From Ignavibacteria bacterium (GTDB lineage: Bacteria; Bacteroidota; Ignavibacteria; Ignavibacteriales; Ignavibacteriaceae), in assembly GCA_011052365.1 (NCBI GenBank), contig DRJC01000200.1:1-59156 (forward strand): DNA of 59,156 nt, given 5' to 3'. Under the pieces are notes generated by a model. It saw only the letters and a list, made by a program, of their open reading frames with translations. It did no database searches and was not told where the DNA came from. Positions 793 through 59,052 of this stretch are shown here, piece after piece (position 1 is the stretch's first letter; each line of letters opens with the position of its first letter). The position numbers were made by a program, and so were the translations under genes.

Positions 793-2514
793 ATGTACGG
801 TGATTTGAAAAAAACCGGCTCTGATAAACGATACACTCTTAATTTGTGGTTTATAAAATTGAGATGGATTGCGGTAGCAATATCTTTTATTCTAATCTAT
901 CTTGCTGATTATCACTTTCATTATTTAGAAAAAGGAAGTTTTTGGCCTTTAATCTTTATAGTTTCATTTCTTTCCCTTATTAATATTATTTATAAAATTC
1001 TATTAATAAAAAGAATATTTTTTAATTTTTTAGAAAAAATACAAATATTTATTGACCTGTTAATACTTTCTCTAATGCTTCAATTTTCCGGAGGAATTGA
1101 AAACCCCCTTTCTTTTATTTATTTATTGCACGTTATTTTAAGCGGGATACTGCTTTCAAAAATTGACTGTTATAAAGTAGTTTTTATTGCCACTCTTTTT
1201 TACGCTATGATTTCTATCGGTGAATTGTATGGGGTTTTACCGCACTACACTTTATTAATATATCCGCACACAACCGAACAGAATATTGAAAATGCTGATT
1301 TGGGAACGGAAACTCATCAACATGCAGAAAATGAAAGTACACTGGTTCACGCCGCACATTACCCGTTATACGTTTGGAGCATGATTGGATTTAATTTTTT
1401 CATAATGCTGCTTACCGCCTATTTTATTACAACAATTATGGAACGTTTAAGGAACGAGGAAAGAGAAACACTGGAAAAATATCAATGGTTGCAAAAAGTT
1501 CTGCAAGCAACCGGGGCAGGGTTACTTATTTTAAATAAAAAACTAAAAGCCGAATGGATGAACGAACCGATTAAAAATTGGCTGAATATTAAAGAATTAG
1601 ATAGAGAAGAAACAGATCTAACTATCTCCGAATGGGTAAAAGAAAAACATAATGTAATTGCACAAATATTTATCGACGGAATTATAAAAACAATTGAACT
1701 TGATAAGATAACAGAAAGCGGGCAGAAACAATTTTTTCAAGTTACTGTTGCTCCATTATTCGGTGCTGATGGTGATATTTATCAAATAGTTGAACTCGTT
1801 CAGGACATCACTGATAAAAAAATATTAGAAGCCGAAATGCTTCATTCTTCTAAAATGGCAATCGTCGGTACTATGGCAGCAAGTATTGCACACGAAGTTG
1901 GAAATCCTTTATCATCTATTGCTACAAGACTAATGTTGTTGGAGAATCAAAAAGATCCTGCTTTTTTAGAAAAAAGTATTCCGCTGCTTCAGAAAGAAAT
2001 TGAAAGAATAAAAAGAATTGTAAGAGGAATCTCTCAGTTTGGGAAACCGGCAAAGGAAGTATGGAGTGTTTGTCAAATCAACAGAATAATTTCAGAAACC
2101 GTTGAAATACTAAAATACCATAAGACATCAAAAAAATGTGAAATTATTACAAGTTTAAACAACAGTTTACCACCCACCTTAGCTTCTTATGATCAACTGA
2201 AACAAGTTTTCCTCAACTTGGGACTTAACGCATTTGAATCAATGGAAAACGGGGGAACTTTGACAATTGAAACGGATTATGAAAGAGGAAACATTTTAAT
2301 TAAATTTACGGATACAGGTAAAGGAATTAATCAAAGACTTCTTGACCAAATCTTCAATCCTTTTTTCTCAACAAAGGAACAGAGTTCGGGTTTAGGTCTT
2401 TTTATAGTTTATCATATTGTTCAGGCACACGGAGGCGAGATTAAAGCATATAGCAAAACGGGTAAAGGTTCTACTTTTAAAATCTATCTGCCAATACAAC
2501 AACATTCAAAATAA
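793..2514 (+). CDS. Membrane sensor histidine kinase (multi-TM N-terminal domain, PAS-like region, HisKA + HATPase; NtrB/AtoS-like)
   Basis: About 6 hydrophobic helices in the first ~220 aa. H-box SIAHEVGNPLSSI, N-box LNLGLNAFESM, G1 DTGKGI, G2 SGLGLFIV. Lies 9 nt upstream of a sigma-54 response regulator. Confidence 0.9.
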   Translation: MYGDLKKTGSDKRYTLNLWFIKLRWIAVAISFILIYLADYHFHYLEKGSFWPLIFIVSFLSLINIIYKILLIKRIFFNFLEKIQIFIDLLILSLMLQFSGGIENPLSFIYLLHVILSGILLSKIDCYKVVFIATLFYAMISIGELYGVLPHYTLLIYPHTTEQNIENADLGTETHQHAENESTLVHAAHYPLYVWSMIGFNFFIMLLTAYFITTIMERLRNEERETLEKYQWLQKVLQATGAGLLILNKKLKAEWMNEPIKNWLNIKELDREETDLTISEWVKEKHNVIAQIFIDGIIKTIELDKITESGQKQFFQVTVAPLFGADGDIYQIVELVQDITDKKILEAEMLHSSKMAIVGTMAASIAHEVGNPLSSIATRLMLLENQKDPAFLEKSIPLLQKEIERIKRIVRGISQFGKPAKEVWSVCQINRIISETVEILKYHKTSKKCEIITSLNNSLPPTLASYDQLKQVFLNLGLNAFESMENGGTLTIETDYERGNILIKFTDTGKGINQRLLDQIFNPFFSTKEQSSGLGLFIVYHIVQAHGGEIKAYSKTGKGSTFKIYLPIQQHSK

Positions 2515-2523
2515 TTTCGATTT

Positions 2524-3879
2524 ATGGTTACAAAAATATTACTAATAGATGATGAAGAGCTTTTCAGAGAAGATTTTGCACTTCTACTTAGGAATGAAGG
2601 ATATAAATGCCTGACTGCCGCATCTGCTGAAGAAGGTCTTGAAACAGTTAAAAACGAATTCCCCGATATAATTTTTGCCGATATAGTAATGCCCGGTAAA
2701 AGCGGGATAGATATTTTGGAAGACATTAACAGAATAAATTCAGAAGGTTCCATAATAATAATGACCTCATACGGCACATTAGAAACTGCGATAAAGGCAT
2801 TCAGATTCGGAGCTATAGATTATATTTTAAAACCAATTGAGTTTGAAGAAGTATTAATTAAAATTGAAAGAATTATTCAGCACAAAAAATTATTAAATGA
2901 AGTAAAATTTTTAAGAAAAGAAGTTTTTGAAAACGCCGAAGAATTTTCTTTTGTGGGTAAAAGTGAGCCTATAAAAAACGTGAAAGAACTGATAAATAAA
3001 GTGGGACCTACAAACAGTACAGTGTTGATTAATGGAGAATCCGGTACCGGGAAAGAAGTGGTTGCCCAGGCAATTCACCAAGTAAATGATAATGCAGATA
3101 AACCGTTTATTGCAATAAATTGTTCAAGTCTACAGGAAAATTTATTAGAAAGCGAGTTGTTCGGACACGTTAAAGGAGCCTTTACAGGTGCTATTAAGGA
3201 TAAAGTAGGTTTTATGGAAGCGGCAGGAGAAGGCACAATATTTTTGGATGAAATCTCAGAAATACCGATAACTTTGCAAAGCAAACTACTGAGAGTTTTA
3301 GAACAAAGAGAATTTTATAGAGTAGGCGGAACAAAAAAATTTCCGTTAAACGCAAGAATAATTACATCCACAAATCGTAATTTAAAGGAAAGTATAAAGA
3401 ACGGTGATTTTCGTGAGGATCTATTTTATAGAATCGCTGTTTTTGAAATAGATTTAGTACCTTTAAGAAAAAGGATAGAAGATATTCCATTATTAATAGA
3501 ATATTTTATAAAAAAGTTTAATAATGAAATGAAGAAGAAATATATTAGTGTTTCTTCCGATTCTATGAAAGCTATGATGAATTATAATTGGCCTGGCAAT
3601 ATTAGAGAACTACGCAATGTAATAGAAAGAGCAATGATTTTGTGTGATGACAAAACAATTACACTAAACGGATTACCTTCCCAAATAAAAGGCACTGCAC
3701 AAATAGCTAACAAATCAAAAAGTCTAAAAACCACAATTAATCTCTATGAGAAATCCTATATTACGCAAATTCTGAAAGAAAACAACTGGAACAAAGAAGA
3801 AACTGCAAGAATACTAGAAATTAATTCTTCAACGTTGTACAGAAAAATAACTGAATTAGGAATTTCTGAAGAAAATTAA
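2524..3879 (+). CDS. Sigma-54-dependent response regulator (REC + AAA+ sigma-54 interaction domain + Fis-type HTH; NtrC family)
   Basis: REC domain (ILLIDDE...FADIVMPGKSG). Walker A GESGTGKE, ESELFGH, GAFTGA sigma-54 contact loop. C-terminal HTH ETARILEINSSTLYRKI. Confidence 0.93.
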   Translation: MVTKILLIDDEELFREDFALLLRNEGYKCLTAASAEEGLETVKNEFPDIIFADIVMPGKSGIDILEDINRINSEGSIIIMTSYGTLETAIKAFRFGAIDYILKPIEFEEVLIKIERIIQHKKLLNEVKFLRKEVFENAEEFSFVGKSEPIKNVKELINKVGPTNSTVLINGESGTGKEVVAQAIHQVNDNADKPFIAINCSSLQENLLESELFGHVKGAFTGAIKDKVGFMEAAGEGTIFLDEISEIPITLQSKLLRVLEQREFYRVGGTKKFPLNARIITSTNRNLKESIKNGDFREDLFYRIAVFEIDLVPLRKRIEDIPLLIEYFIKKFNNEMKKKYISVSSDSMKAMMNYNWPGNIRELRNVIERAMILCDDKTITLNGLPSQIKGTAQIANKSKSLKTTINLYEKSYITQILKENNWNKEETARILEINSSTLYRKITELGISEEN

Positions 3880-3895
3880 GACAACACATAAAACT

Positions 3896-3951
3896 CACTA
3901 CTCTTTATGCAAATAAAGTAACTTTGTATAAGTAACTCTTGCAAAATTGCA
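3896..3951 (+). promoter_or_regulatory. Candidate upstream activator sites for the NtrC-type regulator (two related copies)
   Basis: CACTACTCTTtaTGCAAA at 3896-3913 and AACTCTTGCAAAA at 3934-3946; the second runs into the perfect palindrome TGCAA-aa-TTGCA (3940-3951). The 12-mer ACTCTTGCAAAA recurs at 6214-6225 in the paralogous intergenic region. Confidence 0.45.
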
Positions 3952-4038
3952 AAATATTTGTAACTCTCTCTAAAAAGAAATCCTCCTAACTAATTTAATA
4001 ATAATAAATTACATAGATTTAGCTTTCCATTTTAATAA

Positions 4039-4054
4039 TGGCACAGTGGTTGGT
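4039..4054 (+). promoter_or_regulatory. Sigma-54-like -24/-12 promoter candidate (TGGCAC-N5-TTGGT)
   Basis: TGGCACagtggTTGGT has GG-N10-G spacing as in the TGGCAC-N5-TTGC consensus, but the -12 position reads GG instead of GC. It lies 70 nt upstream of the ATG at 4109 and directly downstream of an NtrC-type activator gene. Confidence 0.4.
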
Positions 4055-4108
4055 ATGCACCAAAAAAATATATTGTAATAATAAACAATAATAACATCAG
4101 AGGATAAA

Positions 4109-4537
4109 ATGAAAAAAACAAGATCGAAACTAACCATTTTAACAGCCGTAACTGTTGCAATAGTAGCCATATTGTTCTTTTCAATTGATAATTTTGGAAA
4201 TCCGGGCGGAAGTAATTGGAAAGTACCCGGTGTAGCTAAAAAACTTAAAAACCCTGTTCCTTCTTCAAAATTATCCATCAAATTAGGTGAAAAATTATTC
4301 GTACAAAACTGTGCAACCTGCCATGGAGAAAGTGGTGTCGGTGACGGGCCCGTAGGTAAATTCTTAGGAAAGAAAGTTGCCGATTTAACATCTAAGGCAG
4401 TACAGAGTCAAGTAGACGGTGTGATATTTTATAAACTTACCAAAGGCAGAGCTCCGATGCCCTCTTATAAAACAATATTAAATACAAAACAACGCTGGTC
4501 TGTTATTAATTACATTAGAACACTTAAATCTAACTAA
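4109..4537 (+). CDS. Class I monoheme c-type cytochrome, N-terminally membrane-anchored or secreted
   Basis: N-terminal hydrophobic helix, single CATCH heme motif, downstream Met ligand region (GRAPMPSY). AGAGGA Shine-Dalgarno before the ATG. Clear paralogue of the 6390-6869 product. Confidence 0.85.
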   Translation: MKKTRSKLTILTAVTVAIVAILFFSIDNFGNPGGSNWKVPGVAKKLKNPVPSSKLSIKLGEKLFVQNCATCHGESGVGDGPVGKFLGKKVADLTSKAVQSQVDGVIFYKLTKGRAPMPSYKTILNTKQRWSVINYIRTLKSN

Positions 4538-4560
4538 TCATAAATACGGAGAAAAATAAA

Positions 4561-5688
4561 ATGAAAAGAATTCGTTTTATACTGTTTTCGGCATTGGCAA
4601 TTCTCATTGGCTCTGCTACTCAAAATCCGGCTCAAGAAAGTACTGACTTACAGAGTCAAATTCAAAAATTTCAAGCAGGTACTCATCAGTTTATGCTTGC
4701 TGGATATGCAGTTACAAGCTTTATAAAGGAAGAAGGCAATCCTTCACAATTTGAAAGTGCCTTTATGCCAATATTCTTATTTAAGGCAACAGATAAAGTA
4801 TTTTTTGAAGGTGAATTAGAAATAGAAATTGAAGATGGAGCTCAAGAAATGAATCTTGAATATGGGCAAATATTGTATTTATTTAGTGATTACCTGATTT
4901 TTGGTGCCGGAAAATTTCTTAATCCCACAAACTATTTTATTGAAAGGTTACATCCGGCTTGGATAAATAAAATGCCTGACAAACCTTTAATGGTACATCC
5001 GGGTACAAGAATGCTGGCCAGCCAACATTTAGGATTTCAATTAAGGGGTGCAGTACCTATTAAGGGTAGCAAAATAGAATACTCTTTCTTTGTTGGGATG
5101 GGACCTGTATTAGACCCTGCAACAGGTGAAGTAACATTTACAAATTATGGAGATAATAACGATAACAAATCTATTGGCGGAAGAATAGGTTTTATACCTA
5201 TTCCAAAATTTGAAATCGGATATGGTTTTGAAGTTGCTAAAGTAGGCGATGCAAATACAAATTTAGAAAGTGTTAAAGCAATAAACAATGTAGTAGATTT
5301 TTCATATGCTAAAGAAATAAAAGGACTAAAGGGCGGAGTAGATTTAAAAGCTCAATTAGTATGGCTAAATATTGATAATCCAAATATTGCACCATTAATT
5401 TACAGTAATGACTCATTTGGCGGTTATGCTCAAATTTCGTTCCGTCCATACAACTCACCAAGTGAATTCTTTCAAAATTTAGAATTCGTTTATCGTTATG
5501 ACTGGAGTGACAAACCGAATAAAGCTCCATCAAATGAATATATTAAAAGGTCTGGTTTTGGCATTAATTATTGGTTAACTTCAAGCAGCCTATTTAAATT
5601 TGCTTATGAAACATCTAATATCGATTTACCTAACGGAAGTACAACTAATGAACACCGTTTTATTGGTCAAGTTGCATTTGGTTTTTAA
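4561..5688 (+). CDS. Putative outer-membrane beta-barrel porin, no heme motif
   Basis: Signal peptide (ALAILIGSATQNPAQE), alternating hydrophobic/polar strand pattern, Gly/Tyr/Asn-rich. C-terminal ...GQVAFGF ends in Phe (OMP signature). No CxxCH. Confidence 0.6.
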   Translation: MKRIRFILFSALAILIGSATQNPAQESTDLQSQIQKFQAGTHQFMLAGYAVTSFIKEEGNPSQFESAFMPIFLFKATDKVFFEGELEIEIEDGAQEMNLEYGQILYLFSDYLIFGAGKFLNPTNYFIERLHPAWINKMPDKPLMVHPGTRMLASQHLGFQLRGAVPIKGSKIEYSFFVGMGPVLDPATGEVTFTNYGDNNDNKSIGGRIGFIPIPKFEIGYGFEVAKVGDANTNLESVKAINNVVDFSYAKEIKGLKGGVDLKAQLVWLNIDNPNIAPLIYSNDSFGGYAQISFRPYNSPSEFFQNLEFVYRYDWSDKPNKAPSNEYIKRSGFGINYWLTSSSLFKFAYETSNIDLPNGSTTNEHRFIGQVAFGF

Positions 5689-5708
5689 TTATTTAGGAGA
5701 AAACAAAA

Positions 5709-5984
5709 ATGAAATTGAAAAGGAAATACATAACCGGTTTTTTACTTGTTTTAGGCTTTTTTGTAGTAGTGGCTATTTCAGGTTGTGCATCTACAACTGA
5801 CATTGCCGATAGATCGGGTGCTGAATTATGGGGCAATAACTGCGCTAGTTGCCATAATATCCGTCCACCCCAGACTTTAACAGACGCACAATGGGAAGTT
5901 GCTGGAATTCATATGAGAACAAGAGCTAATCTTACAGGCGTAGAAACTAATAAAATAATAGAATTCTTAAAAACGGCTAACTAA
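5709..5984 (+). CDS. Small monoheme c-type cytochrome lipoprotein
   Basis: Lipobox VAISGC, single CASCH motif, 91 aa. Starts 20 nt after the barrel gene. Confidence 0.75.
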   Translation: MKLKRKYITGFLLVLGFFVVVAISGCASTTDIADRSGAELWGNNCASCHNIRPPQTLTDAQWEVAGIHMRTRANLTGVETNKIIEFLKTAN

Positions 5985-6010
5985 TTAGGGATTCTATTTG
6001 ACTCAAAAAG

Positions 6011-6040
6011 ACCGGGTGACAAAACCATCCGGTTTTTTTA
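6011..6040 (+). terminator. Rho-independent terminator closing cytochrome/porin module 1
   Basis: ACCGG...CCGG stem followed by TTTTTTTATTTT. Confidence 0.6.
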
Positions 6041-6157
6041 TTTTAAATGAGTGAATCTATTTTAACCATAATGGGTATTATGTTTTTGCAGTTAATACTT
6101 CTAACAAATAAAAAAAATGTATTAAAAAATTACTCCGGTAAATACGGCAATAATTAA

Positions 6158-6177
6158 AAAGGTTATTGATAACCTTT
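6158..6177. promoter_or_regulatory. Perfect 9-2-9 palindrome (possible protein-binding site)
   Basis: AAAGGTTAT-tg-ATAACCTTT in the intergenic region upstream of module 2. Confidence 0.3.
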
Positions 6178-6209
6178 GTATTTGAATATAAACTTCCTCA
6201 TTAATGCCC

Positions 6210-6235
6210 CACTACTCTTGCAAAAATGCGAGAGT
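6210..6235 (+). promoter_or_regulatory. Candidate upstream activator site, paralogous to 3896-3951
   Basis: CACTACTCTTGCAAAA contains the same 12-mer ACTCTTGCAAAA (6214-6225). It is embedded in the imperfect inverted repeat ACTCTTGC-aaaaat-GCGAGAGT (6214-6235). Confidence 0.45.
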
Positions 6236-6319
6236 AAAAAGAAAACACAATATCAGCATCCGTAACTATTTTATATAATAAACAATAACTTACGAAATAA
6301 TACTATTCTTTTATTATAT

Positions 6320-6335
6320 TGGCATTAAAGTTGAT
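6320..6335 (+). promoter_or_regulatory. Sigma-54-like -24/-12 promoter candidate (TGGCAT-N5-TTGAT)
   Basis: Same block spacing as 4039-4054. Lies 106 bp downstream of the shared 12-mer and exactly 70 nt upstream of the ATG at 6390. The -12 position reads GA rather than GC. Confidence 0.4.
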
Positions 6336-6389
6336 TAATAGTAAGGTTAGTTAATAATTTTTCACAAATAAATATTGAGTGTAAATAAA

Positions 6390-6869
6390 ATGAACAAAAA
6401 AACGGTCTCAAGAAGTTTGCTAATATTGGCTGCAACTATAATATTCTTTGCGTCCCCAACAATAAATGCGCAGACCAATAATTGGAAAGCTCCAAAAATT
6501 GCTGATAGACTTAAAAACCCATTAAAAGGAGATCTTTCAGCGGTTAAAAAAGGCAAAGAATTATTTGATATAAATTGTGTTACTTGCCACGGTGCAAAAG
6601 GATTAGGAGATGGTATTGCAGCATCAAGTTTATTTCCAAAACCTGCAAATTTAACTTCTAAAGAAGTTCAAAAACAATCTGACGGTGCTATTTATTATAA
6701 GATTACAAAGGGAAAAAACGCCATGATATCATGGAAGTATTCATTATCAGAAAAACAACGCTGGCAATTAGTTAGTTACATAAGGGAATTAGTACCTCAT
6801 AAGGCAAAGGTTAAAGTTAAAAAATCAACAGCCAAAAATGTAAAACTTAAAAAGAAAACTAAGATATAG
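6390..6869 (+). CDS. Class I monoheme c-type cytochrome (paralogue of 4109-4537) with a Lys-rich C-terminal tail
   Basis: Signal peptide ending INAQT, CVTCH motif, NWKAPK...LKNP... aligns with the 4109 product. The ORF track starts at TTG 6375; ATG 6390 is preferred because it reproduces the 70-nt promoter-ATG spacing of the paralogue. Confidence 0.85.
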   Translation: MNKKTVSRSLLILAATIIFFASPTINAQTNNWKAPKIADRLKNPLKGDLSAVKKGKELFDINCVTCHGAKGLGDGIAASSLFPKPANLTSKEVQKQSDGAIYYKITKGKNAMISWKYSLSEKQRWQLVSYIRELVPHKAKVKVKKSTAKNVKLKKKTKI

Positions 6870-6928
6870 TTTGGAACGAAACATAAAAATGAACTCGGAA
6901 AGAAATAAAAATTAATAGGAGATAAAAA

Positions 6929-8263
6929 ATGAATAATATTTATAAAACCAAAATTCAATTTATAGCTATTGCTGCTCTTATACTATCTTTTATAATTCCA
7001 GAAGAAGCATCAGCCATACCAAGTTTCTCCCGCCAAACAAATCTGCCTTGCAGCACTTGTCACTACAAATTTCCCGAATTAAAACCTTTCGGCAGATTAT
7101 TTAAATTGAACGGTTATACAATGACAGGTGTAGCATCTATTAAATCAGCCAATAATGACAAAATAAATCTCCAACTCTTAAAATCACTACCAATTTCGGT
7201 AAGTTTTCAAACATCATATACTTCAGTAGCTTCAAAAGTTCCTGACAATCAGAACAACACGTTTGAATTTCCACAAGAATTAGGTATCTATTTTGCAGGA
7301 GAAATTACTCCTCATATTGGTGCTTTTATTCAAATTAGTTATGAAGATCAAGAAGGTTCAATTGGATTAGATATGACGGATATTCGTTACGCTAATCATA
7401 CATCTATTGACAATAAAGATTTATTATACGGAGTTAGTTTAAACAACTCACCAACAATGCAAGACGTTTGGGGTACCGTACCAATGTGGTCTTATCCATT
7501 TGTTGGTTCAGGCACAGCTCCTACACCAATGATCAGCACCATGTTAGAGTCTATGATGAACGTATTGGGTTTTGGAACGTATGTGTTGTATGACAACTTC
7601 ATATACGCTGAAGTAAGTGCTTATCGTTCTGTTGTACAGGGAGGACCTATACCTCCAAATGCATCTTCGTCTAATACAATCAGTGCCCTTGCACCATATT
7701 GGAGATTAGCGTTACAGCATCAATGGGAAAATCAATATATTGAAGTTGGAACATACGGAATGGCTCCACAGATTTTTCCTAGTGGGATTACAGGAAAAAA
7801 AGATAATTATACAGACTTCGCATTAGATGCACAATATGAGAACTCGTTCAATAACGGTAGTCTAATAACACATTTTAATTACATATATGAAAAACGGAAT
7901 TTAAATGCCACTTATGCTTCCGGTGGTTCGGCTAGCTTATCAAATACTCTTAATTCTCTAAAAGTTGATGCGGGTTATAACTCTAATGCGGGTTACTCAT
8001 TTACTGTTGGGTACTTCAATATAAATGGAGATGCCGATAACAAATTATACGCACCTGCCCAGGTGGAAGGAAGCGTTAGCGGTTCGCCGAACAGTAACGG
8101 ATTTACATTGCAGGCAACTTTAGCCCCTTGGCTTAATACTCAATTCTCATTGCAATATGTATTGTATAATAAATTTAACGGTTCAAGCGATAATTACGAT
8201 GGGAACGGAAGAAATGCATCCGATAATAATACTTTGTATGCAAATGTATGGCTTATGTTCTAA
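6929..8263 (+). CDS. Fused monoheme cytochrome-porin (Cyc2-like architecture)
   Basis: Signal peptide (…EEASA), then IPSFSRQTNLPCSTCHYKFPELKPFGRLFKLNGYTMTG with a single CxxCH at residues ~41-45. About 390 aa of Gly/Tyr/Asn/Ser-rich beta-strand-like sequence follows, ending ...NVWLMF (terminal Phe). Confidence 0.65.
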   Translation: MNNIYKTKIQFIAIAALILSFIIPEEASAIPSFSRQTNLPCSTCHYKFPELKPFGRLFKLNGYTMTGVASIKSANNDKINLQLLKSLPISVSFQTSYTSVASKVPDNQNNTFEFPQELGIYFAGEITPHIGAFIQISYEDQEGSIGLDMTDIRYANHTSIDNKDLLYGVSLNNSPTMQDVWGTVPMWSYPFVGSGTAPTPMISTMLESMMNVLGFGTYVLYDNFIYAEVSAYRSVVQGGPIPPNASSSNTISALAPYWRLALQHQWENQYIEVGTYGMAPQIFPSGITGKKDNYTDFALDAQYENSFNNGSLITHFNYIYEKRNLNATYASGGSASLSNTLNSLKVDAGYNSNAGYSFTVGYFNINGDADNKLYAPAQVEGSVSGSPNSNGFTLQATLAPWLNTQFSLQYVLYNKFNGSSDNYDGNGRNASDNNTLYANVWLMF

Positions 8264-8351
8264 TATTAAATTTATCGTCTGAATTTTTATTATCAAATGA
8301 TAATAAAGTTTTTAAAAGCGATTTATTAACAAGAACTTAAATTTCAATTCT

Positions 8352-8382
8352 AAAACGACCGGATTTTTTCGGTCGTTTTTTT
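8352..8382. terminator. Bidirectional hairpin terminator between convergent genes
   Basis: AAAACGACCG-gatttttt-CGGTCGTTTT, with A-run and T-run on either side. Confidence 0.65.
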
Positions 8383-46467: not shown

Positions 46468-48411
46468 TTAGTTAATCAATTTATTTTTTATTTCATCTGT
46501 AATATTATCAATAAAATCATTTAGAGACAAAGTTCCTTTATCACCTTCTTTATGTTTTCTAACGGAAATATTACCTGCTGTTTGTTCCTTTTCACCAATT
46601 ATTAACATATATGGAATTTTATTTGTTTCACTTTCTCTAATTTTGTAACCAATTTTTTCATTTCTTTCATCAATTTCAACTCTTAAGCCATTTTCTTTTA
46701 ACGAATTTACAACTTTTTTTGCATATTCAATGTAATTTTGAGAAACCGGAATAACAGTTACTTGAACCGGAGATAGCCAGGTAGGAAAATATCCGGCATA
46801 ATGTTCGATAAGCACACCGATAAATCTTTCCAGTGATCCAAACGGCGCCCTATGAATAACAACCGGACGATGTTTCTGTCCGTCACTTCCGACATATTCC
46901 AAATTAAATCTTTCGGGCATAACGTAATCAATTTGGACAGTACCAAGCTGCCATTTTCTACCAAGAACATCTTTAACCATAAAATCAATTTTAGGTCCGT
47001 AAAAAGCGGCTTCACCTTCTACTATTTTATAATTCAAGTTCATTTCATCTGCAGCAGCTTTAATTTCTTTTTGAGCTTTTTCCCATAATTCGATTTCGCC
47101 GCCGTATTTTTCAGTATTGTTATCCCTGTAAGAAAGCTGGGTTGTAAAATCTGCAAAACCGACTGCGGAAAAAACCGTCTGTACCAAATCAATCACATCA
47201 AGTAATTCATCTTTTAGCTGGTCTTGACGCACAAACATATGCGAATCATCCACAGCAAAAGAACGAACTCGTGTCAACCCGTTTAATTCACCTGACTGCT
47301 CATAACGGTATACCGTTCCAAATTCAGCGAGACGAAGAGGCAGATCTCTGTAGCTGCGCATCTTGGAAGAATATATCTGGAAGTGATGGGGACAATTCAT
47401 CGGTCTGAGTAAGTATTCTTCTTTACTGTTTTCAAATTTTAAAGTTGGGAACTGGCTATCTTTATAATAAGGATAATGACCGCTTGTTTTGTATAATTCA
47501 ATATTTCCGATATGAGGTGTTACAACAGGCAAGTATCCTCTTTTCACTTGTTCTTCACGCAGAAAATTTTCTAATGTTTCTCTTAAGACAGCACCTTTAG
47601 GCAACCATAAAGGTAAACCCGCTCCAACTTTTGGAGTGAAATAAAACAGCTCAAGCTCCCTGCCTAATTTTCTATGATCACGTTTTTTTGCTTCTTCCAA
47701 CAATGCAAGATGCTCATCCAACATTTTCTTTTTTGGAAATGAAATCCCGTAAATTCTTTGAAGCTGCTTATTGTGTTCGTCCCCTCTCCAATATGAACCC
47801 GAGATATTCAACAACTTTACATATTTAATTTTACCGGCAGACGGTAAGTGTGGACCTCTGCATAAATCTACAAATTCACCTTCTTTGTACAAGCTAACTT
47901 TTTCTGATTTTTCATCTATCTCCGATAAGATCTCAAGTTTATATTCATCACTTTTTTCTTTAAAAAATTTAACAGCTTCATCTTTTGAAATATCTTGTCT
48001 TATAAATTGGTCATTACGTTTAGCTATTTCCAACATTTTTTCTTCAATCTTAATAAGCTCTTCTTCGGTAATAGATGAATTTATATCAATGTCATAATAA
48101 AAGCCGCTTTCAATTGCGGGCCCTACACCAAACTTTGCCTCAGGATAAATTTCCTTAACGGCATGAGCCATTAAGTGAGAAGTTGAATGCCAATAAACTT
48201 CTTTGCCTTCATCATCTTTAAACGTGAAAAATTGAATGGTGGAATCGGAATTTAATTTGCTATGTATATCTTTTATTTCGTCGTTAACTTTAACAGCTAA
48301 AGCATCATCAGCCAAACGATGTGAAATTGACTCGGCAATTTTGAAAGCAGTAATTCCTTTTTCAAATTGCTTTACCGAACCGTCAGGAAATGTAATATTT
48401 ATATTTTCCAT
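46468..48411 (-). CDS. thrS: Threonine--tRNA ligase
   Basis: TGS domain N-terminus, editing-domain HSTSHLMAHA, class II core (RPMNCPHH, FRYEQSG, GTVQID), anticodon-binding C-terminus. Confidence 0.97.
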   Translation of the reverse strand: MENINITFPDGSVKQFEKGITAFKIAESISHRLADDALAVKVNDEIKDIHSKLNSDSTIQFFTFKDDEGKEVYWHSTSHLMAHAVKEIYPEAKFGVGPAIESGFYYDIDINSSITEEELIKIEEKMLEIAKRNDQFIRQDISKDEAVKFFKEKSDEYKLEILSEIDEKSEKVSLYKEGEFVDLCRGPHLPSAGKIKYVKLLNISGSYWRGDEHNKQLQRIYGISFPKKKMLDEHLALLEEAKKRDHRKLGRELELFYFTPKVGAGLPLWLPKGAVLRETLENFLREEQVKRGYLPVVTPHIGNIELYKTSGHYPYYKDSQFPTLKFENSKEEYLLRPMNCPHHFQIYSSKMRSYRDLPLRLAEFGTVYRYEQSGELNGLTRVRSFAVDDSHMFVRQDQLKDELLDVIDLVQTVFSAVGFADFTTQLSYRDNNTEKYGGEIELWEKAQKEIKAAADEMNLNYKIVEGEAAFYGPKIDFMVKDVLGRKWQLGTVQIDYVMPERFNLEYVGSDGQKHRPVVIHRAPFGSLERFIGVLIEHYAGYFPTWLSPVQVTVIPVSQNYIEYAKKVVNSLKENGLRVEIDERNEKIGYKIRESETNKIPYMLIIGEKEQTAGNISVRKHKEGDKGTLSLNDFIDNITDEIKNKLIN

Positions 48412-54724: not shown

Positions 54725-55888
54725 AATAAAGGGAATATGTTATGTCTAAAATATTATTGATTGATGACAATGCAGATAATTTAATTTCACTATCTGCAAC
54801 ATTAAAAGATCTCATCCACACATCTACTATTTTAACTGCCAAATCCGGCCCGGAGGGACTGAAGATTGCCTCGGCGGAAATGCCGGATGTTATAATTTTA
54901 GACATTCGTATGCCTGGAATGGACGGCTACGAAGTGCTCGGGTTACTTAAGGCTAATGTAAAAACTAAAGTTATCCCCGTGATACTTTTAACGGCAAACT
55001 ATACAGACATTAAAAGCAAGGTGCGGGGATTAGAAGCAGGTGCAGATGCTTTCCTATCAAAGCCAATAGATAAAAACGAGCTTATTGCACAGGTTAAAGT
55101 GATGCAAAGGATAAAAAAAGCAGAAGATATTTTGCGAAAAGATAATATATTATTAGAGACTGTTGCAAAAAATTCTTCTATGAAATTTGATTTTACTCAA
55201 AGAAAATATCAGAATGTTTTTGATAACAACATTGCCGGTATTCTTGAAACAACATTCGACGGTGAAATAATTAATTGCAATACAGCACTTGCAAAAATGT
55301 TTGGTTTTAAAAATATTGAGGAAGTTTTTGAGCACAAAACGATTCCTTTTTACAAGCACATTTCCGATAGAGAAAAGATTATTTCGTCTTTAAAAAAGGA
55401 TAATGAACTAATAAATTATGAAGTTGAGCTTGTTGACAAAAACGGCAAAACAGTAGACGCTTTAATAAGGTGCTTCAATATTAATAATCAATCTGTTTTA
55501 TCTTTTCTAATTGATATTACTGATATAAAAAGGCTACAAGAGCAACAACACCAATACGAACATATTGTATCCAGTTCCACTGATATGATAGCGCTTCTCG
55601 ATAAAAATTTTACATACCTTGCCTCTAACTCCGCATATCTTGAAGCATTTGGTAAAACTTCAGAAGAACTAATTGGAGCTACCTTGGAAGATGTGTTTGG
55701 TAAGGAGATATTTGACACAGTGATAAAACCAAATGCATTGCGTTGTTTATCCGGCGAAGTAATTAATTATCAAGAGTGGTTTAATTTTCCAATTAGAGGA
55801 AAGTCTTATATGGATGTTGGTTACTTCCCATATAAAGACAAAAAGAATAAGATTAAAGGTTTTGTTGTAAATGCACGAGATATTACAG
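54725..55888 (+). repeat. Copy A of a ~1.16 kb tandem segmental duplication (RBS + REC + first two PAS modules)
   Basis: Collinear with 57889-59052 at a constant offset of 3164 nt, no indels noticed. About 90% or more identity by eye, highest over the REC domain. Confidence 0.85.
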
Positions 55889-57813
55889 AACATAAAAAAA
55901 CTGAAGATGCTCTTAAAGAAAGTGAACAACATTATAGGGATTTATTTAATAACATAAACGACTTGATATGTATTCATGATTTAGAAGGTAAAATCTTGTC
56001 TATGAATCCTGCAGCAGAAAGAGATATCGGCTATAAAATAAGCGAAGTATTAAACAGAAATCTAAGTGAGTTATTAGCCCCTGAAGTAAGAAGTCAATTT
56101 AATGATTACCTTATAAAAATAAAAAAGGAAGGCAAAGCTAAAGGCTTAATGCTCATTCAGACGCGCACGGGTGAAAAAAGAATTTGGGAATATGATAACT
56201 CTATTGTAAAAACGGAAGGTAAAGGACAATTTATCAGTGGTGTAGCTAGGGATGTGACGGATGTAAAAGAAGCAGAAAAAGCAATGCAAGAAAGCGAAGA
56301 GCGGTACCGCTCCCTATTTGAAGATAGTCTAACCGGTGTTTATTTATCATCATTTGATGGCGAATTGTTGGACTGTAATGACGCTTTCATAAAAATGTTT
56401 GGCTATGTTTCTAAAGAAGAACTTAAAAGAGTGCCGACTAATCAATATTATGAAAATAAAAATGATAGGAATATTTTCTTAAAAGAGATAAAAGAGAAAG
56501 GGGCTTTGGTGAACTATGTAGAAAAATTGAAAAGGAAAGACGGCTCTTTTATATGGACACTTCAGAATGTTCGTCAGCTTAATAATAGGATACAAGGCAC
56601 CGTAGTAGATATATCTGCAGATATAGAATCCAGGAATGCACTGATTGAAGCAAAAGAAAAAGCAGAAGAAGCAAATAAGTTAAAATCAAACTTCCTTGCA
56701 AATATGTCTCACGAGCTGAGAACACCCATGGTCGGTATTATAGGATTTATAGAAATCTTAGAGGAAGAAATAGAAAAACCGGACTTAAAAGAATATGCAT
56801 CCTTTATCCACGAAGCCGGCAACAGGTTGATGGAGACATTAAACTTAATATTAAACCTTACAAAAATTGAAGCTGAAAAAATAAACATTGAACTATCAAG
56901 AATTGATATTATCCGGAATATAAAAAAAATAATGTCAATATTTGATAAAATGGCTGATAGAAAGAATATATATTTAAGATTTGAAAGTGATATTAAAAAA
57001 TTTGAAACTGAAACAGATGAAAAAATGTTTAACCAAATAATTAGCAACTTGGTAAACAATGCCGTTAAATATACGGACAAAGGCGGAGTAGCGGTTTCTG
57101 TTAATAAAATTAAAAACGATACTTATTTAGAAATAAAGGTGAAAGATACCGGTATTGGTATTCCAAAAGATAAGCAAGAATTAATTTGGGAAGATTTTAG
57201 ACAAGTAAGTGAAGGCGAGACAAGAATATATGAAGGTACCGGTTTGGGATTAACAATAACAAATAATTTTGTTCATAAACTTGACGGGAATATAAAATTA
57301 GAAAGTGAACTTGGTAAAGGTTCGACTTTTACTTTACTGCTCCCTATCCGAACAAAATCTATTTCAGTTAAAACCAAAGAGCCGGCTTTTGATTTTAACA
57401 AAACAACCGATACACCAAAAATAAAAGACACACAAGAAAAACTAAAAACCCTGCTTTATGTTGAAGACGATAAGATATCCTTAGAAGTAATCCCACTCTT
57501 TCTAAAGGGTTGTTACAATGTTGAATGTGTAAAAAAAGGTGAAGCTGGAATTGAAAAAGCCAAAAAGAAAATATACGACGGTATACTGATGGATATTAAC
57601 CTGCATACCAGAATGGATGGCGTTCAAGCAGCTGAAAAGATTAAAGAAATGGAAGAGTATAAGGAAGTACCAATAATCGCTGTAACCGCATACGCTATGG
57701 TTGGAGACAGAGATAAATTTTTAGAAACCGGATTTACAAATTACATATCAAAACCGTTTTCAAAAAATGATATTATTGAATTGTTGAATAAAACAATAAA
57801 GGAAAAGAATTAA
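54742..57813 (+). CDS. Hybrid histidine kinase: REC - 4x PAS - HisKA - HATPase - REC
   Basis: N-terminal REC (ILLIDDNADN...LDIRMPGMDG). Repeated PAS modules (…NARDITEHKK, …ARDVTDVKE). H-box FLANMSHELRTPM. GTGLGLTIT. C-terminal REC (LLYVEDDK...MDINLHTRMDG). Confidence 0.92.
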   Translation: MSKILLIDDNADNLISLSATLKDLIHTSTILTAKSGPEGLKIASAEMPDVIILDIRMPGMDGYEVLGLLKANVKTKVIPVILLTANYTDIKSKVRGLEAGADAFLSKPIDKNELIAQVKVMQRIKKAEDILRKDNILLETVAKNSSMKFDFTQRKYQNVFDNNIAGILETTFDGEIINCNTALAKMFGFKNIEEVFEHKTIPFYKHISDREKIISSLKKDNELINYEVELVDKNGKTVDALIRCFNINNQSVLSFLIDITDIKRLQEQQHQYEHIVSSSTDMIALLDKNFTYLASNSAYLEAFGKTSEELIGATLEDVFGKEIFDTVIKPNALRCLSGEVINYQEWFNFPIRGKSYMDVGYFPYKDKKNKIKGFVVNARDITEHKKTEDALKESEQHYRDLFNNINDLICIHDLEGKILSMNPAAERDIGYKISEVLNRNLSELLAPEVRSQFNDYLIKIKKEGKAKGLMLIQTRTGEKRIWEYDNSIVKTEGKGQFISGVARDVTDVKEAEKAMQESEERYRSLFEDSLTGVYLSSFDGELLDCNDAFIKMFGYVSKEELKRVPTNQYYENKNDRNIFLKEIKEKGALVNYVEKLKRKDGSFIWTLQNVRQLNNRIQGTVVDISADIESRNALIEAKEKAEEANKLKSNFLANMSHELRTPMVGIIGFIEILEEEIEKPDLKEYASFIHEAGNRLMETLNLILNLTKIEAEKINIELSRIDIIRNIKKIMSIFDKMADRKNIYLRFESDIKKFETETDEKMFNQIISNLVNNAVKYTDKGGVAVSVNKIKNDTYLEIKVKDTGIGIPKDKQELIWEDFRQVSEGETRIYEGTGLGLTITNNFVHKLDGNIKLESELGKGSTFTLLLPIRTKSISVKTKEPAFDFNKTTDTPKIKDTQEKLKTLLYVEDDKISLEVIPLFLKGCYNVECVKKGEAGIEKAKKKIYDGILMDINLHTRMDGVQAAEKIKEMEEYKEVPIIAVTAYAMVGDRDKFLETGFTNYISKPFSKNDIIELLNKTIKEKN

Positions 57814-57888: not shown

Positions 57889-59052
57889 AATAATGGAAAT
57901 ATGTTATGTCTAAAATATTACTAATTGATGATAATGCTGATAATTTAACTTCTCTATCTGCAACTTTAAAAGATCTCATCCACACATCTACTATTTTAAC
58001 TGCCAAATCCGGCCCGGAGGGACTGAAGATTGCCTCACTGGAAATGCCGGATGTTATTATTTTAGATATTCGTATGCCTGGGATGGACGGCTACGAAGTA
58101 CTCGGGTTACTTAAAGCTAATGTGAAAACTAAAGTTATACCCGTGATACTTTTAACGGCAAACTACACAGACATCCAAAGCAAGGTGCGGGGATTAGAAG
58201 CCGGTGCAGATGCTTTCCTTTCAAAACCTATAGACAAAAACGAACTTATTGCACAGGTTAAAGTGATGCAGAGAATAAAAAAAGCAGAAGATATGTTACG
58301 AAATGAAAATATATTATTAGAGTCCGTTGCGAAAGATGCTTCTATGAAATTTGATTTTAGCCAAAAGAAATATCAAAATGTTTTTGATAACAATATTGTC
58401 GGTATAGTTGAAACGACATTTGACGGTAAAATAATTAATTGCAATACTGCACTTGCAAAAATGTTTGGTTTTAAAAATATTGAAGAAGTTTTAGAACACA
58501 AAACAATCCCCTTTTACAAGCACATTTCCGATAGGGAAAAGATCATTTCGTTTATAAAAAAGAATAATGAACTGATAAATTATGAAATTGAGCTTGTTGA
58601 CAAAAACGGCAAAACAATAAATACTTTAATAAGGTGCTTTAATATTAATAATCAATCTATTTTATCTTTTCTAATTGATATTACTGATATAAAAAGACTA
58701 CAAGAGAAACAACACCAATATGAACATATTGTATCCAGTTCAACTGACATAATGGCGCTTCTCGATAAAAATTTCACATACCTTGCTTCTAATACTGCAC
58801 ATCTTGAAGCGTTAGGTAAAACCTCAGAAGAAATAATAGGACATACCGTAGAAGAATTATTTGGAAAAGAATTTTTTGAAGAAGTAATAAAACCATATGC
58901 TTTGCGTTGTTTATCCGGGGAAGTAATTAATTATCAAGAGTGGATGGATTTGCCAATTAGAGGGAGGTGTTATTGGGATGTTAGTTATTTTCCGTATAAA
59001 GACAAACAGAACAAAATTAAAGGTTTTGTTGTAAATGCACGAGATATTACAG
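57889..59052 (+). repeat. Copy B of the ~1.16 kb tandem segmental duplication
   Basis: See copy A. Similarity stops abruptly after ...AATGCACGAGATATTACAG (55888 / 59052). Confidence 0.85.

Follow-up and report, generated by a model that had tools for sequence, protein, structure and literature searches.

The window analysed here, the whole 59,156-nucleotide stretch of contig DRJC01000200.1 (assembly GCA_011052365.1, Ignavibacteria bacterium), contains genes for a sensor histidine kinase and an NtrC-type response regulator, followed by two operons that encode cytochromes c and predicted outer-membrane proteins, one of which is a Cyc2-type fused cytochrome-porin. The two operons very probably form two independent transcription units that depend on sigma-54 (RpoN) and are controlled by this one two-component system. 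Each operon is preceded by a −24/−12 element, TGGCAY-N5-TTG, and by a more distant palindrome, TCTTGC-N6-GCAAGA, which is most likely bound by the adjacent activator. A sequence-only reading of the window had proposed sigma-54 promoters with enhancers for the adjacent activator, and this proposal is supported by the domain content of the activator, the conservation of the elements at fixed spacing, and their co-occurrence with the activator gene in related loci. The device is of a known kind, with the classical architecture of an NtrC-type enhancer-dependent promoter. New here are the targets (Cyc2 and a putatively split cytochrome-porin module of an uncultured vent bacterium), the defined enhancer sequence, and the relaxed −12 position.

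The −24/−12 elements, TGGCACAGTGGTTGGT at 4039–4054 (promoter 1) and TGGCATTAAAGTTGAT at 6320–6335 (promoter 2), are located where the sequence-only reading had placed them, and the start ATGs at 4109 and 6390 are each 70 nt from the T of TGGCA. At both 4039 and 6320, exactly 10 nt separate a GG doublet from the −12 doublet, as in TGGCAC-N5-TTGC. The pattern TGGCAY-N5-TTG occurs at these two sites only on both strands of the 59-kb window, and 0.88 occurrences are expected by chance. The count alone is unremarkable; what counts is the placement of the sites, in the sense orientation and 70 nt upstream of paralogous first genes. The distance of 70 nt holds at both promoters and in the related locus L006, but it is not conserved, since in the relatives it takes values between 49 and 77 nt. 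A spacing of 70 nt is typical, and the exact match of the two promoters of the window has no special meaning and is partly coincidence. The predicted transcription starts were placed according to canonical sigma-54 geometry. Alignment of the two promoter regions showed that only the enhancer block and the −24/−12 block are conserved, in agreement with the earlier comparison. An Rfam scan of the leaders and intergenic DNA found nothing relevant.

The sequence-only reading had also suggested scoring the two elements with a sigma-54 matrix. Using our own approximation of the canonical consensus, promoter 1 ranked 5th and promoter 2 only 26th of 118,282 positions, and because of these ranks the canonical matrix is not decisive alone. 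The four sites that scored above promoter 1 (9257, 17804, 34041, and 34293) are all inside open reading frames. When the column of the −12 C was dropped from the matrix, promoters 1 and 2 took ranks 1 and 2 of the 118,282 positions.

The absence of the canonical C at −12 had been regarded as a caveat for these two sites. The non-canonical doublets, G-G and G-A, are indeed present, but they reflect a lineage-wide feature and not a weakness of the two promoters. The −12 doublets are GG and GA in promoters 1 and 2 and GC, GG, GT, GA, GA, and GT in the six relatives described below. The GG doublet of the −24 block is invariant across the related promoters, and TTG is present in eight of ten. The G at −12 is kept in this lineage, and the canonical C is unconstrained. 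A strain variant in two vent metagenome runs (X6 and X7), 4053 G>A, falls exactly on the position of the canonical −12 C of promoter 1 and changes TTGG to TTGA, the sequence found in promoter 2. Ten strain substitutions were identified in the promoter 1 region, none of them in the proximal palindrome, TGGCAC, or TTG; this depletion has the right direction but is not significant because the sites are too few. Experimentally known sigma-54 promoters that deviate at −12 exist (PMC12316311). Matrix scans that rely on the −12 C will miss real sigma-54 promoters in this lineage. Another sigma-54-like element with a −12 other than C, TGGCATAAAGATTGAT, is located at 378–393 of locus L106, 65 nt upstream of a gene for a YHS/HMA heavy-metal P-type ATPase; the same contig encodes a Cyc2 homologue. 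The TCTTGC palindrome is absent upstream of TGGCATAAAGATTGAT, and the element presumably answers to a different activator.

The sequence-only reading had pointed to a 12-mer, ACTCTTGCAAAA, upstream of both promoters. It is present at 3935–3946 and 6214–6225 and at no other place on either strand of the window; with up to one mismatch it has 5 matches, compared to 0.84 expected. The recurrence upstream of both promoters was verified, but the 12-mer is not the unit of the element: it consists of the left arm and spacer of a 22-bp palindrome. Measured from start to start, it is 104 and 106 bp from TGGCA, not 105 or 106 bp as claimed. The full dyad, (A)CTCTTGC-N6-GCAAGAG(T), is perfect in L006 and L017. 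The enhancer of promoter 2, already recognised as the inverted repeat ACTCTTGC-N6-GCGAGAGT at 6214–6235, has seven of eight arm positions complementary, and the enhancer core of promoter 1, TCTTGC-N6-GCAAAA, contains one mismatch to the palindrome consensus. With up to one mismatch, TCTTGC-N6-GCAAGA has three matches in the window (0.07 expected), two of which are the enhancers of promoters 1 and 2. The third, at 47693, was rejected as a chance match: it is inside the threonyl-tRNA synthetase gene, has no −24/−12 partner, and was not in the output of the composite scan described below.

Promoter 1 contains a related copy of the motif, CACTACTCTTtaTGCAAA at 3896–3913, which the earlier reading had counted as a second copy; we interpret it as a weaker distal site and not as an equal one. 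In L042 and L019, a distal site positioned 31–35 bp upstream of the proximal one is itself a complete palindrome, and a TGCAA-type half-site is found at the same relative position in most other related loci. Promoter 2 of the window has no clear distal site. The half-sites are spaced 12 bp from centre to centre, and the second site is about three helical turns upstream; both values match the layout of NtrC-type enhancers. A site for integration host factor (IHF) or other DNA bending between enhancer and promoter was considered (weakly conserved TAAC, RnTTAY), but it is inseparable from the AT-rich composition, and we make no claim for it.

The gene at 2524–3879 encodes an NtrC-type bacterial enhancer-binding protein (bEBP), as the sequence-only reading had stated. 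Its product contains receiver, AAA+, and Fis-type HTH domains (Pfam Response_reg, 1e-26; Sigma54_activat, 3e-67; HTH_8, 1e-9), an intact GAFTGA motif at residue 218, the Walker A sequence GESGTGK, and the recognition helix INSSTLYRK. An intact GAFTGA is a published discriminator of true sigma-54 activators (PMC3162934). The product scores under every named NCBIfam equivalog cutoff (AtoC, NtrC, ZraR, NtrX, and others), with AtoC as the best match (413 bits, cutoff 714) and NtrC reaching 381 bits (cutoff 559), and it belongs to an unnamed bEBP subfamily. The activators of the related loci are 59–82% identical to the protein of the window. Without exception, the eight cognate activators have the recognition helix IN(S/P/A)STLYRK, and the helices of two outgroup bEBPs (36–39% identical) are different. 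Recognition helices of the STLYRK type are common among bEBPs and are not unique to this clade. A scan of the genome collection with the activator returned one close relative. Orthologues of the kinase in L014 and L101 match 6TM_PilS (PF25323). A literature search for rpoN or sigma-54 in Ignavibacteria returned nothing useful; sigma-54 regulons occur in Bacteroidota (PMC12316311).

Related loci were gathered through homologues of the porin-like protein of operon 1 (including 80 metagenome loci) and through homologues of Cyc2, and 107 loci were fetched. Six non-redundant loci carry orthologous kinase and activator genes; five of them contain the porin operon (L006/L014, L015/L016, L017, L018, and L019), and the sixth contains a cytochrome-Cyc2 operon (L101/L102). 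In all six, the palindrome (up to two mismatches) is centred 91.5–97.5 bp upstream of GGYA-N6-TTG (Table 1). The palindrome has the properties of an upstream activating sequence (UAS), a dyad site about 80–150 bp upstream of the promoter that is conserved together with the activator, and this holds for eight non-redundant promoters at distances of 91.5–97.5 bp. The GC content of the related loci ranges from 0.30 to 0.48, and the DNA flanking the two blocks has diverged. Neither a MAFFT alignment nor a promoter-anchored stack contained anything strongly conserved besides the enhancer and the −24/−12 blocks. Locus L006 combines a perfect palindrome with the canonical TTGC.

Table 1 Enhancer cores and −24/−12 elements of promoters in the window and in related loci
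Promoter or locus	Enhancer core	Distance from enhancer centre to T of TGGCA (bp)	−24/−12 element
Window, promoter 1	TCTTGCAAAATTGCAAAA	93.5	TGGCACAGTGGTTGGT
Window, promoter 2	TCTTGCAAAAATGCGAGA	95.5	TGGCATTAAAGTTGAT
L006/L014	TCTTGCAAAAATGCAAGA	93.5	AGGCATAATAGTTGCT
L015/L016	TTTTGCAAAATTGCAAGA	94.5	TGGCATAATCATTGGA
L017	TCTTGCAATACTGCAAGA	91.5	TGGCATAAAGATTGTT
L018	TCTTGCACTTTTGCAAGA	97.5	TGGCACTATAGTTGAA
L019	CCTTGCAATTTTGCAAGA	94.5	TGGCATTATTATTGAT
L101/L102	TTTTGCAATATTGCAAAA	93.5	TGGTATAAAGATTGTA

A composite scan of 1.69 Mb for the palindrome (up to two mismatches) positioned 86.5–106.5 bp upstream of GGYA-N6-TTG identified the cognate promoters only, with eight non-redundant matches compared to about 0.2 expected according to our own estimate from single-motif frequencies. 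The combination of palindrome and promoter was absent from some 70 porin loci that are more distant and have no bEBP gene, among which L042 alone bears palindromes, and from the regions upstream of cyc2 in the Cyc2 loci without a bEBP (L099, L103, L104, and L106). Among loci with enough upstream sequence, the palindrome was found only beside an activator gene, the short contig L042 excepted. In L101 and L105, the two-component system is coupled directly to Cyc2.

Several observations weigh against sigma-54-dependent control of the two operons by the adjacent activator. The doublet at −12 is GG in promoter 1 and GA in promoter 2 instead of the canonical GC, and at rank 26 promoter 2 would not stand out in a scan with the canonical matrix. 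The proximal palindrome of promoter 1 has a good left arm and a degenerate right half (GCAAAATA). The activator of L101 (5200–6552, minus strand) contains GAFTNA instead of GAFTGA. Locus L042 contains two perfect palindromes, correctly spaced from TGGCAC, which is followed by N5-TATAG and lacks TTG; in L105, the palindrome adjoins the activator gene and is located 260 bp upstream of TGGCAC-N5-TTCTT. The RpoN box was found neither in the window, which is a metagenome contig, nor in the 107 fetched loci; the intact GAFTGA of the activator is indirect support for rpoN in this genome. No RNA run contains the region, and its DNA runs are hydrothermal-vent and marine-sediment metagenomes only. The predicted pairing of the activator with the palindrome is derived from their co-occurrence.

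Some features of these loci can be added. The target promoter in L101 reads TGGTAT instead of TGGCAY, and together with GAFTNA this could represent either a co-varying pair or a decaying system. The upstream sequence of L042 contains only a fragment of a divergent PAS-domain gene. Both L042 and L105 were considered as further full cases and rejected, since their fit is partial (TAT at −12 in the former; the 260-bp spacing and TTCT in the latter).

The predicted character of the activator-palindrome pairing leaves room for an alternative in which the promoters depend on sigma-54, and the palindrome is bound by another factor, with the adjacent activator binding elsewhere or acting from solution. 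The lack of clade specificity of STLYRK-type helices is compatible with this arrangement. However, among loci with enough upstream sequence, all that contain the palindrome except L042 have an orthologous activator gene beside it, and the position of the palindrome near −120, its dyad symmetry, 12-bp half-site spacing, and second site about three turns upstream constitute the classic layout of bEBP sites. We consider it very unlikely that a different factor recognises the palindrome.

The conserved TTG could also be the −35 hexamer of a promoter for a housekeeping sigma factor, in which case ordinary activators or repressors would use TGGCA and the palindrome as their operators. AT-rich hexamers resembling −10 elements are present 16–18 nt downstream of TTG; in several orthologues, four or five of six positions match the −10 hexamer by eye, and a sigma-70 scan lists TTGATT-16-AATAAT at 6331–6358, overlapping the −12 block of promoter 2. 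The unconserved −12 C fits this explanation as well. Nevertheless, sigma-70-like matches are fewer than expected in shuffled sequence (16 versus 20.9), and the promoter-anchored stack contains no −10 hexamer conserved at a fixed position. A housekeeping promoter would leave unexplained the invariant GG at the fixed 10-nt spacing, the TGGCAY block, the strict co-occurrence with a GAFTGA activator, and an operator as far as 120 bp upstream, which makes it a highly improbable reading. That the shared motifs are functionless leftovers of a duplication of the promoter region and cytochrome gene, as the paralogous first genes and the 10-mer CACTACTCTT common to 3896–3905 and 6210–6219 might suggest, has next to no probability and appears effectively refuted by the related loci, since neutral DNA would have been randomised by the time the encoded proteins were only 46% identical, the two promoter regions are otherwise unalignable, and the same blocks recur at the same spacing in six other non-redundant loci.

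For sigma-54-dependent control of both operons by the adjacent two-component system, the following mechanism can be proposed. The membrane sensor kinase (793–2514) would phosphorylate the NtrC-type activator (2524–3879). Dimers of the activator would then bind (A)CTCTTGC-N6-GCAAGAG(T), whose centre is some 120 bp before each predicted start, and at promoter 1 a weaker second site, about 32–35 bp further upstream, may also be occupied. The bound dimers would oligomerise into an active AAA+ ring. Looping of the DNA would bring the ring into contact with the sigma-54 holoenzyme at TGGCAY-N5-TTG, and the ring would open the promoter with ATP. Operon 1 would yield two cytochromes c, one of them a small lipoprotein, together with a likely porin, and operon 2 would yield a cytochrome c and Cyc2. 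The circuit would be compact: a single sensor kinase and a single activator would act through a 22-bp enhancer on two promoters and convert an environmental signal into the expression of two cytochrome-porin modules.

Both operons are periplasm-to-outer-membrane electron-transfer modules (Table 2), and they most likely enable a hydrothermal-vent bacterium to oxidise Fe(II) or to exchange electrons extracellularly. The cytochromes encoded by the two first genes are 46% identical paralogues. The large proteins encoded after them have no detectable sequence similarity. Operon 1 ends with a strong terminator, and therefore operon 2 needs its own promoter.

Table 2 Coordinates of the regulatory genes, cis elements, and operons in the window
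Feature	Position	Strand	Basis or remark
Sensor histidine kinase with about 5–6 N-terminal membrane segments, PAS, HisKA, and HATPase_c	793–2514	+	Pfam scan, hydropathy profile
NtrC-type response-regulator bEBP	2524–3879	+	Receiver, AAA+ sigma-54 interaction, AAA lid, HTH_8
Distal degenerate enhancer-like site of promoter 1	3896–3919	.	Sequence comparison
Proximal enhancer (UAS) of promoter 1, ACTCTTGC-AAAATT-GCAAAATA	3935–3956	.	Centre 93.5 bp upstream of T of TGGCA
Promoter 1, −24/−12 element TGGCAC-AGTGG-TTGGT (GG-N10-GG)	4039–4054	+	Predicted start near 4065
Monohaem class I cytochrome c (CATCH), first gene of operon 1	4109–4537	+	Domain scan
375-residue haem-less protein of a large family without a name, operon 1	4561–5688	+	Domain scan, homologues
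91-residue small cytochrome c (CASCH) with lipoprotein-type signal peptide (ISGC), operon 1	5709–5984	+	Domain scan
Intrinsic terminator at the end of operon 1, 14-pair stem followed by T run	6005–6039 or 6005–6045	+	
Enhancer (UAS) of promoter 2, ACTCTTGC-AAAAAT-GCGAGAGT	6214–6235	.	Centre 95.5 bp upstream of T of TGGCA
Promoter 2, −24/−12 element TGGCAT-TAAAG-TTGAT (GG-N10-GA)	6320–6335	+	Predicted start near 6346
Paralogous monohaem cytochrome c (CVTCH), first gene of operon 2	6390–6869	+	Domain scan, pairwise comparison
Predicted Cyc2-type fused cytochrome-porin, operon 2	6929–8263	+	Motifs, beta-barrel of about 16–18 strands
Intrinsic terminator at the end of operon 2	8352–8379	+	

The product of 6929–8263 is identified by its motifs and predicted fold as Cyc2, a fused cytochrome-porin and putative iron oxidase. 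Cyc2 proteins are characterised by a signal peptide, a single N-terminal CXXCH, a length of at least 365 residues, the motifs AXPXFAR[Q/K][T/Y] and PXL, and a porin barrel (PMC8406198). The protein of the window is 444 residues long, and contains a signal peptide, with an N-terminal helix at residues 2–21, and a sole CXXCH, CSTCH at residues 41–45. Its version of the Cyc2-specific motif, AIPSFSRQT, differs from the family consensus AIPSFARQT by one S in place of A, and PEL starts four residues after the H of the haem motif. The AlphaFold model (predicted template-modelling score 0.74) is all-beta from about residue 70, and its best matches in the PDB are the 16-stranded porins OmpF and OmpC (E about 1e-9, template-modelling score normalised to the target up to 0.6). 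The closest homologues are labelled Ignavibacteria or originate from hydrothermal-vent metagenomes. In L099 and L103, which contain the closest homologues (78–82% identical), cyc2 has no upstream cytochrome c gene and no activator gene and is followed by genes for a Rieske protein and cytochrome b. The leader or intergenic region of about 600 nt before cyc2 in these loci (L099 6344–7000 and L103 5247–5827) contains a GC-rich block in AT-rich surroundings, and could be a structured RNA or another regulatory region.

The 375-residue protein of operon 1 is likely an outer-membrane porin. In its family, some proteins match OprO/P porins, and some contain a fused cytochrome c domain. The family has 931 matches, mostly without a Pfam model, in Calditrichaeota, KSB1, Bacteroidetes, Methylocaldum, and Nitrosomonas. 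The fused members carry the cytochrome c domain at the N-terminus and are 563–588 residues long; the homologues considered here were P0017, P0024, and P0038. Because of these fusions, operon 1 may encode in split form what a second kind of fused cytochrome-porin, different from Cyc2, combines in one protein. The small cytochromes have weak NCBIfam matches, well under the cutoff, to cytochrome 579 of Leptospirillum, with sub-threshold E-values of 1.7e-10 for the product of 6390–6869 and 3e-5 for that of 4109–4537. Cytochrome 579 is a periplasmic partner of a Cyc2-like outer-membrane cytochrome.

Operon 2 is absent from L006, L014, L015, and L017, in which a major facilitator superfamily (MFS) gene directly follows the gene for the 91-residue protein. 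The part of the window without a counterpart in these closest relatives, 5985–8380, spans the enhancer, promoter, cytochrome c gene, cyc2, and terminator. Therefore, operon 2 looks like an insertion or lineage-specific acquisition that was brought under the same regulator, and in the organism of the window one regulator apparently serves both modules. Elsewhere in the window, 54725–55024 and 57889–58188 form a 300-nt direct repeat with 93% identity, which spans the start of a response-regulator/PAS/histidine-kinase gene (54742–57813) and recurs just after the end of the gene. This suggests a recent duplication of the start of a receiver-domain gene. Two giant hybrid kinases of 1127 and 1023 residues are encoded in tandem near the repeat.

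Cyc2 is the main marker gene of neutrophilic microbial iron oxidation, and almost nothing was found on its regulation. Our literature search yielded no description of cyc2 under sigma-54 control or of the TCTTGC-N6-GCAAGA palindrome, and the only work that it returned on sigma-54, cyc2, and iron oxidation concerned RegBA in an acidophile (PMC5506826). A 2025 cross-phylum survey of sigma-54 regulons does not mention cytochromes (PMC12316311). We speculate, as a tentative generalisation, that the PilS-like kinase and NtrC-type activator may be devoted to switching Cyc2-type and split cytochrome-porin modules in Ignavibacteria-like bacteria of vents, acting through a lineage-typical sigma-54 promoter with its −12 block reduced to TTG and the C unconstrained. 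In that case, TCTTGC-N6-GCAAGA followed at about 94 bp by TGGCAY-N5-TTG would be a cis-regulatory code of cyc2 described for the first time outside acidophiles, and it would provide a handle on the signal (Fe(II), redox state, or O2) that induces genes of neutrophilic iron oxidation. The composite motif could be used to find more members of the regulon in metagenome-assembled genomes, and the regulatory parts could be reconstituted in E. coli.

The textbook sigma-54 enhancer system is that of NtrB/NtrC and the glnAp2 promoter of enteric bacteria. The two systems share a two-component bEBP and dyad sites arranged in tandem about three helical turns apart, and activation by looping and ATP hydrolysis is predicted here as in that system. 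They are also alike in the position of the sites, about 110–140 bp upstream of a −24/−12 promoter of the GG-N10 type. However, the site is TCTTGC-N6-GCAAGA here and TGCACC-N5-GGTGCA for NtrC, the kinase of the window is membrane-embedded, its targets are cytochromes and porins where those of NtrC serve nitrogen assimilation, the C at −12 varies, and the activator is not an NtrC equivalog. In the PilS/PilR system, a membrane kinase with six transmembrane segments is paired with a sigma-54 response-regulator activator. The combination of a 6TM sensor kinase module, identified by a weak Pfam match of the orthologues, with a sigma-54 activator resembles that system, but the targets are not pilin genes and there is no PilR-type site.

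The nearest precedent for the regulation of cyc2 is RegB/RegA of Acidithiobacillus ferrooxidans, which controls the rus operon (cyc2-cyc1-...) (PMC5506826). As proposed for the window, a two-component system controls an operon that contains cyc2 and a gene for a soluble cytochrome c. RegB/RegA belongs to an acidophile, and its operon differs in content and in cis elements from those described here. RegA, moreover, is not known as a sigma-54 activator. The nearest functional precedent is BccR of Geobacter sulfurreducens, a sigma-54-dependent response regulator encoded beside the cbcBA cytochrome operon, which has a sigma-54 promoter; BccR is required to induce cytochromes for metal-linked electron transfer (bioRxiv 10.1101/2021.04.15.440034). 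Both systems place a sigma-54 response regulator beside a respiratory cytochrome operon with a predicted or known sigma-54 promoter. BccR is divergently transcribed and controls an inner-membrane bc-type quinone oxidoreductase for Fe(III) reduction, whereas the operons of the window encode periplasmic and outer-membrane parts, including Cyc2, in a different phylum. The likeness to BccR that is proposed here is one of architecture.

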